Notes under the pieces: model-generated | What the model saw: the letters and a program-made list of their open reading frames with translations, nothing else | Told to the model about the DNA's origin: nothing | The model's database searches: none | Made by a program: the position numbers and the translations under genes | Part shown: positions 2,745 to 15,725 of the stretch, piece after piece | Position numbering within the stretch: position 1 is the stretch's first letter | How the letters are laid out: each line of letters opens with the position of its first letter | Assembly: GCA_038240295.1 (NCBI GenBank) | Contig: JBBSDW010000082.1 | Span: 1-15,725 of the forward strand | DNA from: Candidatus Kapaibacterium sp. | Lineage (GTDB): Bacteria > Bacteroidota > Ignavibacteria > Palsa-1295 | Reading direction: 5' to 3' | DNA: 15,725 nucleotides

Positions 2745-4688
2745 CTACTTCAATTGCAATAGATTCAACGAATACCCGCCATCGCCGGATAGGATACGAA
2801 CTTGATACGTACCAGTGCAAAAAAGCTCAGTGCTAATAAGCGCTGGATGGTTCGGCGAAAGTTGAGTGGCACTCCGGGAGACAAGTTTGCCAAGCGCATC
2901 GAAGACCTCGATCGTCACTTCTCCCAGATCGGCGTCGGAATGAATCAATGCATACGTGCTCGCGGGGTTTGGGATGATGCGCAGAGTCGGAATCTTGCTG
3001 TAGCGTGTGAATTGGGAGATCAGTGGTGTGCCGCAGCCGAGTTTGCCGCAGACAGTGCTGATGATCGGCGAAGCTGTTATGGCGCAGATCTCTGAAGATT
3101 GCGTGATCACAAACGAGTCGAGAATAACGCTCGTGCAACTGCTGTCCTTCGGATAAATATGAAAGACGGCATATCCGGCTACATTTCCTTTCATTGAAGC
3201 TGCAGCTTGCGGAAAGAGCACATGCGCGAAGCCAACCCAGCGCGCCGTCGTGGCGTCGATCTGGCGGCCAGCTTGATACGATCCTGCATAGACCAGCATC
3301 GTCGTATCGTAACGAACGGCAAAGTCAAGATCACCAATAAACGATTGACTACTCGAAATGATCGGCACATAAATACTGCCGCCGATCGTGTCGTTGGAGA
3401 TATCCGCGGTCGTGAATGTGACCGTGGGAGCGTCACCACCGACTGCACTCAACGGGATGGTTTGTTCTTCGCCGCTTGCGAAGATATGCAACCGTGCAGC
3501 GTAGCTGCGAGCACTGGTAGGCAAAAAGATAACGCTCACAGAATCTCCTCTCGAAGGTATCGCTACGAAATTGAGTGAGTCAGCTCCATCGATGCTGAAC
3601 GAATCGATCGATGGCGTCCCGCAAAGCCCCAGCACTGCAAGTCCCATGCTGACGTCCGAGCAGGGCAGGACCGTATCGGGAAAATTCACCGACAGTGGTT
3701 GCACGCTCAGACCAATGCGCGGCACCACGGAATCGCCGCCGCTATTTGTCGTGCGCCAGACATTGCCTTCGGAGTCAGTGGCAACGATGATGTTGTCGGT
3801 GATCGCCGAGATCAGACGCGTGTCATACGTATTACTCGGTCCGCCGATACTCGTCCAGATTACACCATGATCGACGGAGCGGTAAATGCCATCCGTGATA
3901 GAGGGACAATAGACTGCGTTAGGAGAAACCGCAATGCTCCCGCAGAAAAAGGGATGATTCCTGCTAACCTGATTTGTCCAGGTCGCACCCAGATCTGTTG
4001 TTAAAAACAGTTGCGAGTACGCGTCGGAAGGGGAGATGTAATCTTCGTTCGAAAGCACGACTCGCGAAAGCTGGCAAGAATCGACGCCGAACGTAAACGA
4101 ATCGAAGTCGATCGCGCCCGCGCTCGCAACCCACGTGGCGCCCATGTCAGTAGAGCGATGCAAAAATCCGCCTCCCTGATCGCCGCCAAAATAGAGAACC
4201 GATCCGTCGCGGGACGTCGTGATATAAAATGAAGCAGGGGATTGCACCACATTTTTCCAGGACGCGCCAGCATCGGTCGATAATGCTATCACGCCCGAGG
4301 AATAGGCGATGGCAGCAACCATTGGCGAGCCGATAAAGCAGGCGGAGAGCGCCGCGCCGACGCTCGCCAGCTTCCAGGTCGTACCGCCATTACGTGTGAT
4401 ATAGGTGCCATTGATACAGGCGGCGATCCCGTTCGAGGCATCGATGAACTGGATGTCGTTGGCCGTGACAATGTTTCCGACCTTCGCCCAGGTAATGCCG
4501 AGATCATCCGAGCGGAACACGCTCCCTTTCGCGAGCCAAAGTCTGCCGTCGCGGTAGCTCATCGCACCGTTGCTGCCGGCCGGAACAAGATTCGGTGCCA
4601 CCATCTTCCACTGCGCTTCCGAACGGATCGGAAGCGCGAGTGTGAGCGAGGTGAGCATAACCAGAATGATGAGCACCGATAGTCTCAT
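2745..4688 (-). CDS. Secreted BNR/Asp-box repeat beta-propeller protein (sialidase/Ycf48/sortilin-like fold) with a T9SS C-terminal sorting domain
   Basis: Signal peptide MRLSVLIILVMLTSLTLALPIRSEAQ. Multiple S-x-D-x-G-x-T-W Asp-boxes (SDDLGITW, TRNGGTTW, STDAGASW, STDMGATW, TTDLGATW, SVDHGVIW). The C-terminal ~75 aa (IIPNPASTYALI...VTIEVFDALGKLV...GTYQVRI...) match the Por_Secre_tail pattern. Confidence 0.85.
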   Translation of the reverse strand: MRLSVLIILVMLTSLTLALPIRSEAQWKMVAPNLVPAGSNGAMSYRDGRLWLAKGSVFRSDDLGITWAKVGNIVTANDIQFIDASNGIAACINGTYITRNGGTTWKLASVGAALSACFIGSPMVAAIAYSSGVIALSTDAGASWKNVVQSPASFYITTSRDGSVLYFGGDQGGGFLHRSTDMGATWVASAGAIDFDSFTFGVDSCQLSRVVLSNEDYISPSDAYSQLFLTTDLGATWTNQVSRNHPFFCGSIAVSPNAVYCPSITDGIYRSVDHGVIWTSIGGPSNTYDTRLISAITDNIIVATDSEGNVWRTTNSGGDSVVPRIGLSVQPLSVNFPDTVLPCSDVSMGLAVLGLCGTPSIDSFSIDGADSLNFVAIPSRGDSVSVIFLPTSARSYAARLHIFASGEEQTIPLSAVGGDAPTVTFTTADISNDTIGGSIYVPIISSSQSFIGDLDFAVRYDTTMLVYAGSYQAGRQIDATTARWVGFAHVLFPQAAASMKGNVAGYAVFHIYPKDSSCTSVILDSFVITQSSEICAITASPIISTVCGKLGCGTPLISQFTRYSKIPTLRIIPNPASTYALIHSDADLGEVTIEVFDALGKLVSRSATQLSPNHPALISTELFCTGTYQVRILSGDGGYSLNLLQLK

Positions 4689-11916: not shown

Positions 11917-13752
11917 TCAGTGCACGATGCTGATCGCGCTTCGCGCAAATCCGGCCGGCGTTCTTAACTCCGCATAATAAACGCCAGACGGAAGCTTCGT
12001 TGCATCGAAGCGTTCGAGGTGTTCGCCTGCAGTTATTTCTTTTTCGAGAACATTCGCAACCTTGCGGCCTTCGACATCGAAGATCGCGAGTGAGACGTTC
12101 GTCCGTTCGGCGAGCGAAAATCGGAATGTCGTTGAAGTGTTAAGCGGATTTGGATAATTCTCCTCGAGCGTCGCGTTTGAAGTTGGCGAACTAATACGAA
12201 CCGCACCTACCGGAGCGGCATCGATCGGCACCCAGGCAGCGTAGGGATTCGTGATGCCGTCGTTCGTTCGCTCATCGCACCAAACAGGAATCGTGTAATT
12301 ATCGGTCATGATCGTCGCCGCGTAATCGCCGACGCCGAAGGAAGCAGACTGATTTGTTGAAAATGCACCGTGATCGGATGATTTGGAGGAAACGATCTGA
12401 TTGGTAGCAAACGTAAGCCCGCCATCGTAAGAATTCGCAGTATAGGCGTTGGTGATCAGCGAATTCACATCGGTTCTTCGATCATACCAGCTGATACCGA
12501 TGATCCCCCGACGGTTCACAGCGATGCTCGGATTATAATGATCACCCAGTCTCGTCTCGACATCATCATTGACGGTTGAGGGAGCCGACCAGGTTGCCCC
12601 GTTATCGGTTGAACGAGAAAAATAAATGTTGAGCGGTGTCGTTGCAGCATTGAGCGTACCGTTGGCGCACCAGGTCAGATAAAGAAATCCGAGGTGACTT
12701 GTTTGCGAGGTATCGATCGTAAAATTCGGACACGGGTACTGCCGACCCTGTTCGATACCCGGAACGGGATGACTATCATCCAGCGAAAATCCCGGAAAAT
12801 GCACATCCACGGCTTTTTGAGCTGTCGAAAAGGTCACACCTCCATCGTTCGAAACAGAATGCCAGATCGCGAACTGACTTCCATCCTGCGATCCAAAAAA
12901 AGTGCAGTGAACACCGCCTTTTGGATCTACGACCACATTCGGAAACTGGACCATGGCAAAATTTGCACCGGCGATCAGCGAACCGAGTTGATTGAAGCTC
13001 GTCCCATTCGGGATCATTCGGCGAACCTGGATCGATGCCGTGCGATTGATCGAAACGATCGCGGCGTAAAGCGATCCGCGATAAGGAGAATTGCTCCGAT
13101 CGGCCGCGAGCCATTCTTTGTCGTATGCCTGCGAAGCGCTTTGCGTGATCGTCCCGCTCGCAACATACCCATTGGGGGCGCGAGTGAACGTGGCGCCGCC
13201 ATCCGTCGAGCTTGCCCAATAGATCTTGTTATAGTAGTAACTCTGGTTGTTTGCAAAAAAGTAAATGTCGATCCAGGCCATATAGAGCTTGCCATCAGCG
13301 CCCCAGGTGAACATCGGATCGCCGCCGCCGCCGACCAAGGTGTTCTGCTCGACCGGCAGAGGAGTGAAGCTCGATTTTTTCCATGTGCGGCCAAAATCCT
13401 TCGTGTAGTAGATCGGGCAAACAACTCCGAGGGTGCTCGCCGTATTGATCGGCGAGACGATGATATTCGTGCTGTCGGCTGGATTCATCGTCGCAAAAAC
13501 CTCTGCCTCCGCCGTGCGTTCGATATCGACATCAATCTCCCGGGGCCCGCCAAGTGTCTCACGTTTGTGTTCCGTTTCATTCGTCTTGGCAATCGCAGGA
13601 CCTCGCATCATCGAGGATTTCTCTCGAAGATACTTAGCGATAAGGCTATCGCCCATCCACATCGATTGCGCCGAAACAAGCGCAGGCAGCGATGCAAACG
13701 CGAGCACAAGGATAATTGCAACAGCAATTATACGGACAGGTGTTTTTTTCAT
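11917..13752 (-). CDS. Secreted BNR/Asp-box repeat (sialidase-like or glycoside-hydrolase-like beta-propeller) protein with a T9SS C-terminal sorting domain
   Basis: Signal peptide MKKTPVRIIAVAIILVLAFASLPALVSAQ (the ORF is open to 13800, but the 13752 ATG gives the canonical signal). Asp-boxes KDFGRTW, SSTDGGATF, SVSNDGGVTF, SRSTDNGATW, NSYDGGLTF. C-terminal domain ...NYPNPLNTSTTFRFSL...VSLAIFDVEGRKV...LPSGVYYAELRT... Confidence 0.85.
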   Translation of the reverse strand: MKKTPVRIIAVAIILVLAFASLPALVSAQSMWMGDSLIAKYLREKSSMMRGPAIAKTNETEHKRETLGGPREIDVDIERTAEAEVFATMNPADSTNIIVSPINTASTLGVVCPIYYTKDFGRTWKKSSFTPLPVEQNTLVGGGGDPMFTWGADGKLYMAWIDIYFFANNQSYYYNKIYWASSTDGGATFTRAPNGYVASGTITQSASQAYDKEWLAADRSNSPYRGSLYAAIVSINRTASIQVRRMIPNGTSFNQLGSLIAGANFAMVQFPNVVVDPKGGVHCTFFGSQDGSQFAIWHSVSNDGGVTFSTAQKAVDVHFPGFSLDDSHPVPGIEQGRQYPCPNFTIDTSQTSHLGFLYLTWCANGTLNAATTPLNIYFSRSTDNGATWSAPSTVNDDVETRLGDHYNPSIAVNRRGIIGISWYDRRTDVNSLITNAYTANSYDGGLTFATNQIVSSKSSDHGAFSTNQSASFGVGDYAATIMTDNYTIPVWCDERTNDGITNPYAAWVPIDAAPVGAVRISSPTSNATLEENYPNPLNTSTTFRFSLAERTNVSLAIFDVEGRKVANVLEKEITAGEHLERFDATKLPSGVYYAELRTPAGFARSAISIVH

Positions 13753-13830
13753 TTGATCAATGACGTCAGAAGCTAACCGATTGAGAAACCCAAGCCTCAC
13801 AGAAAAGTTACACGCGCTTTCTAGGAGTTG

Positions 13831-13855
13831 TTAGTTCTTAGGGCTTAGTTCTTAG
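13831..13855. promoter_or_regulatory. 11-bp direct repeat TTAGTTCTTAG x2 (13831-13841 and 13845-13855, period 14 bp), 80-100 bp upstream of the minus-strand BNR gene start. Candidate regulator-binding site.
   Basis: Exact repeat read directly. A second direct repeat, GGGGGATGACGCA (13858-13870) and GGGGAGATGACGCA (13914-13927), lies further upstream. Confidence 0.3.
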
Positions 13856-14002
13856 TTGGGGGATGACGCAGTCAGCACACGAATTAAGAATCCGCAGGGC
13901 GTATCTTTATTTGGGGAGATGACGCAATAGAAAGTGGCTGAATGCTCCGAGTTCTTTTTGTAGGCGATCAACTTCAGTTTGACCTTATCGGAGCACTCAG
14001 CA

Positions 14003-14383
14003 CTAAAATGCTATCGAGCCGAGACCATCGGACGAGGGCGCATTGAGGATGCCTGGACGCGGATCGGAACTGGTACGCAAAAAAAGGTACCGAGACGAAC
14101 AACGATTCTGGAAATGTAAGAGCTGATCTGCATATCGATTTAACAAAAAAAGAGCTTCTAAAAACCGGAAGTAACTTTGGGCAAATCGAGTTCTTGCCAA
14201 GACCATACCACGAAATGTTTCAACTGACTCGGATGCCTCATCTTGATCGCTAAGTGAGTGGAAAAAGGCCCAAATCCGAGCCCTATGGCCAATAATTTCA
14301 TTTTGAAGTTTTACTTGGGTTATCGACCAGTTACCATGCATCAGCCTGCCCAATTGTCGCATTGTGAAGAAATGAGATGGCAC
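14003..14383 (-). CDS. Questionable small ORF (126 aa) inside the low-GC noncoding gap. Hypothetical protein if real.
   Basis: This is the only ORF over 100 aa in a ~950-bp gap. No recognisable motifs, and the composition is atypical for the neighbouring genes. Confidence 0.15.
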   Translation of the reverse strand: MPSHFFTMRQLGRLMHGNWSITQVKLQNEIIGHRARIWAFFHSLSDQDEASESVETFRGMVLARTRFAQSYFRFLEALFLLNRYADQLLHFQNRCSSRYLFLRTSSDPRPGILNAPSSDGLGSIAF

Positions 14384-14570
14384 TTGACCTAAAATGCTTC
14401 AACACCAAACCCGAGATTTCGGCGTAAATTGGGTGAGTTGGGACGAATTCTATTAACTCACGTGAGATCGATCTTCCTGATTTCAGCCGTTGCATGGCTT
14501 TTCCTGATGGAGGCGACCATGTCGTCTTCGCAATTGAGTTGGGGGAGTAAGGATCAGCGAAGGTAACGAG

Positions 14571-14695
14571 GTGGGGTACGCTTTAGCTTGCCCCATCGAA
14601 TCGAAAAACATCGCACTTTGCATCTTGGTGTAACTCTCAGACCAAGATATCCTTGAAGCGAAAAAGTGATTGGGGCAAGCTAAAGCGTGCCCCAC
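14571..14695. repeat. ~125-bp near-perfect palindrome: 25-bp inverted-repeat arms (14571-14595 and 14671-14695, 24/25 complementary) enclosing nested inner stems (cacttt/aaagtg, and atcttggt 14622-14629 against accaagat 14641-14648)
   Basis: GTGGGGTACGCTTTAGCTTGCCCCA against TGGGGCAAGCTAAAGCGTGCCCCAC. The centre is the loop gtaactctcag. It lies 11 nt downstream of the stop of the minus-strand ferritin-like gene. Confidence 0.7.
14658..14693 (-). terminator. Candidate intrinsic terminator for the ferritin-like gene (minus strand): hairpin GGGGCA-cgcuuuagcu-UGCCCC followed by AAUCACUUUUUCG
   Basis: The proximal palindrome arm forms its own 6-bp GC-rich hairpin, 12 nt after the TAA stop. A U5 run follows 5 nt after the stem, which is a weak U-tract. 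Confidence 0.3.
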
Positions 14696-14706
14696 ATTTC
14701 TTGGGC

Positions 14707-15725
14707 TTACTCTCCGATGATTCGTGCGAGTTCTTTGTGCGAGATTGTCATTGCTACTTGCGGGTCGATGATTCCGAGTGCGAGCAGGCGGTCGATCGCG
14801 GCCTTTTTGGTTTCGTCTTCGATTGTTTGGACGGAGTCGGTTTTGAAGATGTGTTTGAGCCAGTGGACGCCTTTTGAGAGGTGAGTCCGTTCGTCGGCGT
14901 TTACATAGTCGAAGACGCGGCCTGTGAGGTCATCGCCTTTTTCGTAGGCTTCGCGTGCGTAGCGGAGGCATTCCTGGACTATGTTCGCTTCGCCGAAAAG
15001 GTTGATCTCGGCGAACGAATATTTCGCTTCCATTTTTGCACGGACTTTAATACCGAGCAGCCGATTCAAAAGATCGAACGGATCGTAGCCGAGCGACTCG
15101 AGCGATTTATGTCCGAGTTCCGTGTGACGGGTCTCGTCCCAGATGATTCGCGCAAGGTCAAAATCGAATCCGAAGGGAACATCGGTGATCTCGTAGAGTA
15201 CGTTACCGAATGTTTCAATCGCGTCCATCTCGTCGCGTTGTGTGCGAACGAGCGATAGACGGGTTTTATCAAATTCGGATTCGTATTCGATCTTACCTGC
15301 ATCGGCCACGTGATAATCGTAGGTCGTTTCGAATGTCTTGAATCGTGCATCGCGTGTGCCTACGAATGAACGCTGGAAGGGATGTGCGCCGTTTGAACGG
15401 AGAAATTCCGGCCGCGGTACCTTCGGCAAAAGTCCGGTGATGCCCCCAATAGAGCGCAACATTTTTTCGATGTGGTATTCCCACTTGCGGATCGAATGTT
15501 GCTCGTACCCGCCTTCGATATAGGCAAGCGATGCGCCTTTGCCCCATGCGATCATTTCGTCGTAATCAATGAGTATTTGCTTCATCGACCGGATCGTCGG
15601 CGCATCCGCAACCTGGTCGGTGTGCGAGATGTGTTCGGCGTAGGCACGACGAAGGTGGGGAAGGATCACGTTGTAAAGCGCTGCAAGAAAGTGCGCCGGT
15701 GATTCGGCCTGGAGCAGTTCGGCAA
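14707..15725 (-). CDS. Ferritin-like di-iron carboxylate-type protein (two ExxH motifs: DETRHTELG, ADERTHLSKG). N-terminus truncated by the window edge.
   Basis: Stop TAA at 14707-14709. The reading frame stays open past the listed GTG at 15669 to the window end (...AELLQAESPAHFLAALYNVILPHL...), so the true start is outside the window. Two EXXH motifs ~85 aa apart suggest a ferritin-like four-helix-bundle metal site. Confidence 0.7.
   Translation of the reverse strand, partial: AELLQAESPAHFLAALYNVILPHLRRAYAEHISHTDQVADAPTIRSMKQILIDYDEMIAWGKGASLAYIEGGYEQHSIRKWEYHIEKMLRSIGGITGLLPKVPRPEFLRSNGAHPFQRSFVGTRDARFKTFETTYDYHVADAGKIEYESEFDKTRLSLVRTQRDEMDAIETFGNVLYEITDVPFGFDFDLARIIWDETRHTELGHKSLESLGYDPFDLLNRLLGIKVRAKMEAKYSFAEINLFGEANIVQECLRYAREAYEKGDDLTGRVFDYVNADERTHLSKGVHWLKHIFKTDSVQTIEDETKKAAIDRLLALGIIDPQVAMTISHKELARIIGE

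Follow-up and report, generated by a model that had tools for sequence, protein, structure and literature searches.

Repetitive extragenic palindromic (REP) elements have been known since the 1980s and were later framed mechanistically as part of a system of REPINs (REP doublets forming hairpins) and REP-associated tyrosine transposases (RAYTs). The subject of this study is a palindromic element of 125 bp, located at positions 14571-14695 of a 15,725-nt stretch of DNA (contig JBBSDW010000082.1 of assembly GCA_038240295.1; the whole stretch is hereafter called the window), downstream of a ferritin-like gene of the DUF455 family. The features described below indicate, with a probability that we put at about 0.88, that this element is a "head-head" (tag-outward) dimer of REPs, similar to a REPIN, and belongs to a RAYT-associated family.

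As is the case for the REPINs and RAYTs of Pseudomonas fluorescens SBW25, the repeats of this family appear to be extragenic and non-autonomous, and to flank a single RAYT gene (PMC3116915; PMC3337134); the layout of the window element is the REPIN layout of Bertels and Rainey (2011, PMC3116915). The two differ in REP sequence and in phylum (a gammaproteobacterium in the case of SBW25, a Kapabacteria relative here) and, unlike the SBW25 REPINs, the element is present in one copy in the window, with a spacer that has no second copy in the loci examined. Within the GTAG superfamily, the same layout is known as the "HH dimer" (Di Nocera et al., 2013, PMC3733652). Members of this superfamily share with the present family a short, imperfect stem-loop that bears an unpaired tag on one side, sub-families with complementary stem changes, dimers with the tags outside and spacers that may hold small stem-loops, a location near or overlapping stop codons, and an association with tyrosine transposases (PMC3733652). 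Published spacers of REP dimers measure 20-100 bp, and GTGG is a known variant of the tag, found in the GTGG-tagged GTAG-20 repeats of Opitutus terrae (PMC3733652). The 2013 survey recorded GTAG repeats in Proteobacteria, Cyanobacteria, Chloroflexi and the Planctomycetes-Verrucomicrobia-Chlamydiae group; Bacteroidota/Kapabacteria and Acidobacteriota, which are hosts of the present family, were not among them (PMC3733652).

The REPs and bacterial interspersed mosaic elements (BIMEs) of Escherichia coli, together with TnpA_REP (YafM), resemble the present family in the internal mismatch, the 5′ tetranucleotide tag and a transposase gene flanked by REPs (Messing et al., 2012, PMC3479197), and the HUH/Y1 type of enzyme is common to TnpA_REP and to the proteins found at two loci of the family, L005 and L012 (PNHVH and a Tyr-containing ESYDH). 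E. coli BIMEs contain defined Y and Z types of REP and linker motifs that bind integration host factor or gyrase, and, unlike in E. coli REPs, the hairpin's 3′ foot in the window family pairs with the last two bases of the tag (AG..CT or GG..CC). The ends of IS200/IS605 insertion sequences and their non-autonomous derivatives, the palindrome-associated transposable elements (PATEs), also carry subterminal imperfect hairpins, act on single-stranded DNA (ssDNA) by means of a Y1 transposase and generate no target-site duplications. In IS200/IS605 elements the left end is distinct from the right and the transposase genes are multi-copy; unlike these, the gene flanked by the present repeats scores above the RAYT cutoff and well below the IS200 cutoff (31 and 18.5 versus 55 bits), and holds a conserved place after dnaK in four genomes.

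Structure of the palindrome

The element and the gap that separates it from the DUF455 gene are composed as follows.

14571-14595, tagged strand plus: left REP copy, with a 5′-GT tag, the hairpin GGGGTA-C-GCT-TT-AGC-T-TGCCCC and then A
14596-14670, no strand: spacer of 75 nt between the REPs, with an 8-bp stem and a 6-bp pairing inside
14671-14695, tagged strand minus: right REP copy, 5′-GTGGGGCACGCTTTAGCTTGCCCCA; read on the plus strand, TGGGGCAAGCTAAAGCGTGCCCCAC
14696-14706, minus strand: gap of 11 nt that separates the REP dimer from the stop codon of DUF455

The two arms (14571-14595 and 14671-14695) are 25 nt each, lie 75 nt apart and are complementary at 24/25 positions (96%); their sequence did not occur in any of 200 shuffles of the window. 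The inverted repeat reported in a preliminary description of this DNA is therefore real. The 6-bp and 8-bp stems and the 11-nt loop that the description placed within it were likewise recovered by a repeat search and by folding: a perfect 8-bp stem (14622-14629/14641-14648) surrounds the 11-nt loop within the spacer, and CACTTT pairs with AAAGTG in the folds. On the other hand, "near-perfect 125-bp palindrome" holds for the arms and these 8 + 6 bp of the spacer; the remainder of the 75-nt spacer is largely asymmetric.

The element folds far better than shuffled sequences. As RNA, a 151-nt region reaches -62.4 kcal/mol on the minus strand (z = -6.8) and -70.5 kcal/mol on the plus strand (z = -7.9), which bears out the very stable RNA hairpin proposed earlier. 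As ssDNA, the 125-nt element reaches -39.4 kcal/mol on the plus strand (z = -10.2) and -37.6 kcal/mol on the minus strand (z = -8.2), and the long two-arm hairpin is the minimum-energy fold of both strands. The 75-nt spacer alone, folded as ssDNA, is no better than its shuffles (-8.9 and -8.4 kcal/mol on the plus and minus strands, z = -1.9 and -1.3).

The key feature, overlooked in the preliminary description, is that each arm is an imperfect hairpin on its own, GGGGCA-A-GCT-AA-AGC-G-TGCCCC (-4.6 to -9.4 kcal/mol for single arms as ssDNA). An arm has an outer stem of 6 bp, a mismatch that is conserved and an invariant inner core, CATGCTTTAGCTTG, and is preceded by an unpaired 5′ GT; this GT and the first two bases of the stem make up the tag, which is GTGG in the window and GTAG in other loci. 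The tags point outward, on the plus strand in the left arm (5′-GTGGGG..) and on the minus strand in the right arm. The left copy differs from the family consensus, GTGGGGCATGCTTTAGCTTGCCCC, at two positions and the right copy at one. Both arms have a derived G at the mismatch (position 16; A in the consensus) and are thus either copied from a single sub-variant or the result of homogenisation. The G variant is rare outside the window: a metagenome scan for it returned four matches, all in unrelated GC-rich contigs. The symmetry of the palindrome thus follows from the presence of two inverted copies of one REP, and selection at the locus, earlier invoked as the keeper of the symmetry, is not needed to explain it.

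A family of tagged hairpins

The search for dispersed copies that had been proposed for the source genome was run on a genome collection. When one genome per species (GTDB set) was scanned with the pattern GGGGYANGCTWWAGCNTGCCCC, 83 loci were returned; these were available as 8-kb pieces, from which the copy numbers per genome are derived (loci are cited by L numbers, protein relatives by P numbers). Most of the 83 loci contain one oriented motif, GGGGCAAGCTAAAGCATGCCCC-AC, or GT-GGGGCATGCTTTAGCTTGCCCC on the other strand. This motif of 22-24 nt, 5'-GT-GGGGCA-Y-GCT-TT-AGC-T-TGCCCC, is present in multiple copies in Candidatus Kapaibacterium, in related Bacteroidota metagenome-assembled genomes (MAGs) and in Bryobacterales. 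The oriented 24-mer GGGGCAAGCTAAAGCATGCCCCAC occurs several times per genome in Bryobacterales/Solibacteraceae MAGs, and also in MAGs of Ca. Kapaibacterium (L005, L028 and L042) and in MAGs labelled Bacteroidota (L012, L055, L068 and L071).

Among 78 copies collected by their core, 11-14 nt of the core are invariant, and the mismatch of the hairpin, at positions 7/16, is conserved. An AC, the complement of the 5′ GT tag, follows the hairpin in 68-73 of the 78 copies, whereas the opposite flank is random; therefore, the unit is a hairpin with a one-sided tag. As a whole, the tag reads GTAG in L098-L103; the window copies, like most of the remaining ones, have GTGG. Variation in the outer stem takes the form of compensatory changes (GGGGCA/TGCCCC, AGCGCA/TGCGCT, AGAGCA/TGCTCT, GGGACA/TGTCCC, GGCACA/TGTGCC and GGAACA/TGTTCC). 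Among copies selected for the pairing of 5 or more of the 6 outer positions, 18 double-change cells were observed in the outer stem, compared with 3.2 ± 1.5 in shuffles, and the best register was that without sliding (slide 0). In addition, the last two tag bases pair and covary with the 3′ foot of the hairpin, as GTAG...CTAC or GTGG...CCAC (L098-L103, L005, L012 and the window). This covariation would fit a guide-like role, and recalls the cleavage-site pairing of IS200/IS605 and TnpA_REP.

The same observations bear on the idea that the dyad is a double-stranded palindrome recognised by a dimeric regulator, or a cruciform site, that controls the downstream BNR gene, a gene for a protein with a sorting domain of the type IX secretion system (T9SS). 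The dyad symmetry itself, and a position about 820 nt upstream of this next minus-strand gene, are what such a site might present. That distance, however, places the element far from the start of the BNR gene, the motif recurs in many unrelated gene contexts, often directly after stop codons, and the covariation preserves pairing within a strand rather than a fixed duplex sequence. A regulatory or cruciform site is thus extremely improbable.

Perfect palindromes with other cores, such as GGGGCAGGCTTAAGCCTGCCCC, GGGGCACGCTATAGCGTGCCCC and the Mucilaginibacter site GGGGCATGCTAAAGCTTGCCCC, were excluded from the census as unrelated or as members of other families. The family seed for REP/REPIN finding is CAAGCTAAAGCRTG. 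A scan of viral contigs with the family consensus gave no match, and a full-text search of a literature library for the motif or core sequence retrieved no paper.

Dimers and their spacers

In the fetched loci, pairs of repeats are mostly in the tag-outward orientation (RF, 11 pairs; FR, 4; FF, 2), alongside 72 singletons. Dimers of the family lie 0-11 nt after an upstream stop codon in L028, L042, L012, L099, L101 and L103, so that the position of the window dimer is typical of the family; as noted earlier, the element begins 11 nt past a stop codon of a minus-strand gene (14707-14709). The gaps between the repeats of the other dimers are 5-50 nt. The window spacer has no counterpart among them: blastn and tblastx comparisons of the window spacer and of 13753-14706 with all fetched loci matched the arms alone, the window spacer is unrelated to the spacers of other dimers of the family, and a metagenome scan for doublets of the exact arms with spacers of 60-90 nt gave no match. 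Two tag-outward dimers in L099 (2819-2911 and 3626-3720) have a similar spacer of about 50 nt (TTxTAACAAxAxxTGAGTAAG..), and to judge from these sequences the copied unit in this genome looks like the doublet rather than the single REP.

Terminal inverted repeats of 25 bp, a size of about 125 bp and absence from orthologous loci could also describe a miniature inverted-repeat transposable element (MITE) that is derived from a DDE-type insertion sequence and mobilised by a cut-and-paste transposase. No target-site duplication accompanies the element, however, the flanks (..AACGAG / ATTTCT.., that is, ..GGTAACGAG / element / ATTTCTTGG..) containing no direct repeat. Moreover, each supposed terminal repeat is itself a hairpin and is also found singly, the spacers differ completely between dimers, and the RAYT, a Y1/HUH enzyme, is the only transposase found beside the motif. 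There is accordingly a very slim chance that the element is such a MITE. Of the options in the preliminary description, the MITE-like insertion comes closest, as the arms belong to a dispersed repeat family and four orthologous loci lack the element, but the element is a RAYT-linked REP dimer that lacks a target-site duplication.

Association with RAYT genes

Open reading frames located between copies of the motif in L041 (Bryobacteraceae) and L005 (Ca. Kapaibacterium) encode proteins with the HUH motif PNHVH and a Tyr-containing ESYDH or ESHDH. These were scored against the NCBIfam model NF047646, "REP-associated tyrosine transposase" (cutoff, 80 bits), and the IS200 equivalog (cutoff, 55 bits).

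RAYT of L041: NF047646, 95.7 bits; IS200 equivalog, 31 bits; Pfam Y1_Tnp matched
RAYT of L005: NF047646, 87.2 bits; IS200 equivalog, 18.5 bits; Pfam Y1_Tnp matched

Two further RAYTs were found by tblastn, in L012 and L040. The motif directly flanks the RAYT gene in L005, L012 and L041, typically in the order [tagged REP]-spacer-[inverted REP]-RAYT-[REP]. A homology search with the L005 protein retrieved 2460 relatives, several of which carry the name "REP element-mobilizing transposase RayT" (JGI, NCBI) or "REP-associated tyrosine transposase". Four of these relatives were fetched with their loci (P0126, P0129, P0130 and P0136; 52-59% identity), and all four are flanked by the same REP family, with the canonical tag (ATGTAG-CGCATGCTTTAGCTTGCGCT). 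In total, seven independent RAYT loci are flanked by repeats of the family (L005, L012, L041, L098, L099, L101 and L103).

The Kapabacteria-type RAYT is located directly downstream of dnaK in L012 (1688-4351), L098, L099 and L101 (RAYT at 3001-36xx), and after mutS in L103; REP dimers fill the dnaK-RAYT spacer in those loci. A conserved genomic position is expected of vertically inherited, single-copy RAYTs (PMC5581495), and the position after dnaK in four genomes suggests, as far as gene order can tell, vertical inheritance.

The same 22-nt REP consensus (core CAAGCTAAAGCATG, GT(A/G)G tag) flanks RAYTs of Bryobacteraceae (Acidobacteriota) and Kapabacteria that are only 36-37% identical (L041:56-703 compared with L005:3249-3957 and L012:1673-2407). 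It is tempting to speculate that the recognition code between REP and RAYT has been frozen across phyla, or that REPs or REPINs have moved between phyla of soil and peat, and that the window dimer may have mediated or accompanied the rearrangement of the neighbours of DUF455 described below; we regard this as a tentative and rather doubtful idea.

The arrangement of these loci also prompts us to ask if the window element is the relic of a former RAYT locus, that is, an upstream pair of REPs left behind after the RAYT gene was deleted or decayed into the stretch of about 800 nt without genes that adjoins the dimer and is otherwise unexplained. The RAYT genes of L005, L012, L098 and L101 are indeed preceded by a tag-outward dimer of this kind, and that of L012 has a spacer of 50 nt with a hairpin of its own. 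A profile hidden Markov model (HMM) built from five RAYTs and run at maximum sensitivity on all frames of the window gave a best E value of 0.5, elsewhere in the window than in this stretch, and tblastn was negative. Furthermore, the RAYT follows the right-hand (F) arm in RAYT loci, a place that is occupied by DUF455 here, and in relatives it lies after dnaK and not near DUF455. Such a relic is very unlikely.

The DUF455 locus and its relatives

The surroundings of the dimer are as follows.

14707-15725, minus strand: 3′ part of the DUF455 (ferritin-like) gene (PF04305), cut by the end of the window; stop codon at 14707-14709
13753-14570, no strand: stretch of about 800 nt without genes, outside the REP element, between the dimer and the BNR/Por_Secre_tail gene
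11917-13752, minus strand: BNR/Por_Secre_tail gene, the next minus-strand gene after the dimer

The ferritin-like gene of the preliminary description was correctly recognised: its orthologs are named DUF455 or ferritin-like. An exact-protein look-up of the DUF455 fragment, which is cut by the window, returned no record. The best named relatives of the protein are from Ca. Kapaibacterium/Kapabacteria, and one relative (P0020, 74%) is encoded on the same 3.58-Mb chromosome as L012; by this protein comparison the window organism is a Kapabacteria relative, of the clade in which RAYT/REP loci were found.

The orthologous region was compared in four relatives, none of which contains the element at this place; of the options given earlier for the palindrome, insertion comes nearest to this result.

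P0001, 92% amino acid identity: DUF455 followed by 14-16 nt, a convergent gene of about 402 aa and ruvC; family REP absent
P0003, 78% amino acid identity: DUF455 followed by 14-16 nt, a convergent gene of about 402 aa and ruvC; family REP absent
P0002, 80% amino acid identity: DUF455 followed by other neighbours; family REP absent
P0004, 76% amino acid identity: DUF455 followed by other neighbours; family REP absent

In a comparison of the window with its closest relative, DNA homology breaks off precisely at the stop codon of DUF455, and the break in synteny lies there (window 14707, compared with L089/L090:7398 and L106:5330). On the window side, this break is followed by the REP dimer, by 800 nt without coding sequence and by the co-directional BNR/T9SS gene. 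Therefore, the dimer and the gene-free DNA mark a lineage-specific rearrangement; they stand in place of the ancestral convergent neighbour gene of the relatives.

These comparisons are also relevant to whether the palindrome is an RNA element that evolved locally, namely a bidirectional terminator or a stabiliser of the DUF455 3′ end, maintained by selection at the locus and unrelated to mobile DNA. The very stable fold on both strands, the position 11 nt after the stop codon and a U-rich stretch that, on the minus strand, lies downstream of the proximal hairpin would suit such an element. On the other hand, the arms belong to a repeat family that is present at dozens of unrelated loci in different phyla and flanks RAYT genes, and the four orthologous loci are devoid of it. 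A promoter and terminator scan of 13700-14900 called no intrinsic terminator at 14571-14695 on either strand, because the minus-strand U-run (..GCCCCAAUCACUUUUU) begins 6 nt after the proximal stem; the terminator-like hairpin with a U-run that had been described is thus not upheld. No Rfam 15 family reached its gathering threshold in the window, the sub-threshold matches being chance similarities to eukaryotic microRNA hairpins (22.5 and 20.1 bits, compared with thresholds of 90 and 117). As the origin of the palindrome, an RNA element is largely refuted and has a probability of only a few percent. A scan of the window for tRNA and tmRNA found nothing relevant, and two other identities were dropped, namely a CRISPR repeat, since there is no array, and an integron attC site, since there is no matching core.

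The gene-free stretch contains a 31-nt direct repeat (13840-13870/13896-13926, 71%), two occurrences of TTAGTTCTTAG (13831-13855) and a 14-nt inverted repeat (13937-13950/13988-14001, 93%). It has no Rfam match and no homolog in the fetched loci, and no gene was called in it on the Logan contig L001; it may be a long 5′ untranslated region (UTR) or promoter region, a decayed gene, or a non-coding RNA. Contig L001 (3.8 kb, SRR24807096) matches the window without a difference and stops 5 nt into the spacer, beside the left REP; its positions 1-30 correspond to window 14571-14600 on the reverse strand, and it is the sole public contig that carries the neighbouring gene. This end resembles a break of the assembly graph at a repeat and hints at further copies in the sample.

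In the closest relative (DUF455, 92%), a different RAYT-like gene (L090:1028-1582), which is 25-27% identical to the others, is located about 5 kb from DUF455 and is flanked by inverted REPs of its own (GTAGGGGCACTCCGCGAGTGCCC, at L090:838-866 and 1600-1628); the REP of this RAYT is GTAGGGGCACTCCGCGAGTGCCCC. In L089, from another sample, only an ORF of 75 aa was called at this site. Elsewhere in the window, two minus-strand genes (2745-4688 and 11917-13752) encode BNR/Sortilin-type proteins with C-terminal Por_Secre_tail (T9SS sorting) domains, and PD40 and Ig-like (HYDIN/VesB-like) proteins are also encoded; such genes for secreted proteins adjoin DUF455 in the relatives.

Strength of the interpretation

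Several points weigh against the assignment of the element to a RAYT-associated family as a REPIN-like dimer. The copies used for the covariation analysis were seeded by a GGGG..CCCC pattern and filtered for outer pairing, which inflates the paired fraction; the compensated variants are found in second copies that neighbour the seeded ones and in loci that were fetched by way of their proteins. The window spacer is the longest in the family (75 nt, or 77 nt between the 22-mers) and has no homolog, so the doublet may represent two REPs around unrelated DNA rather than a REPIN replicating as one unit. The 15.7-kb window contains a single dimer, and the tblastn and HMM searches described above detected neither an intact nor a decayed RAYT in it. 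The genome and metagenome collections that were scanned did not include the source genome, which is represented here by the window and the 3.8-kb contig L001; multi-copy status and a RAYT are therefore presumed for the source organism from what was seen in other genomes. Finally, the closest relative contains a different pair of RAYT and REP, and the family appears, from the loci compared, to be patchy within the clade. Nevertheless, the element is a small piece of parasitic or domesticated DNA of a well-known kind and not a regulatory invention of this locus; only the REP family and its hosts are new.

Possible mobility and effects on the host gene

In E. coli, the mismatch and the GTAG tag are both required for binding and cleavage by TnpA_REP, and tag bases 3-4 specify the cleavage dinucleotide (PMC3479197). 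By analogy with this enzyme and with Pseudomonas REPINs (PMC3116915), the RAYT of the present family would bind the tagged REP hairpin on single-stranded DNA and cleave next to the hairpin, and would thereby copy or move REPs and REPINs in trans. The dimer would have arrived in this way downstream of the DUF455 gene in the lineage of the window, in which the gene order differs from that of all relatives examined.

The DUF455 transcript would bear the REP dimer in its 3′ UTR, where a very stable stem-loop might block 3′-5′ exonucleases or attenuate read-through. Stabilisation of the RNA 3′ end is plausible as a secondary effect, by analogy with E. coli REPs. The dimer, 11 nt after the stop codon, could also impede the terminating ribosome: ribosome stalling has been reported for REPs of E. 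coli that lie no more than 15 nt from a stop codon (Liang et al., 2015, as cited in PMC12306157). To the extent that these parallels apply, the element is most likely a passenger of DUF455, and may incidentally stabilise its mRNA or damp its translation.

For annotation, a conspicuous palindrome is explained as a REP dimer, and the consensus GT-RGNGCA-T-GCT-TT-AGC-T-TGCNCY makes the family searchable. The tag/foot covariation (GTAG..CTAC versus GTGG..CCAC) could serve as a test of the way in which the tag determines where cleavage occurs. The family adds non-proteobacterial examples to the REPIN-RAYT picture, including a RAYT with a conserved position after dnaK. If movement of REPs or REPINs across phyla is true, it would run counter to the view that REPIN-RAYT systems are essentially vertical.

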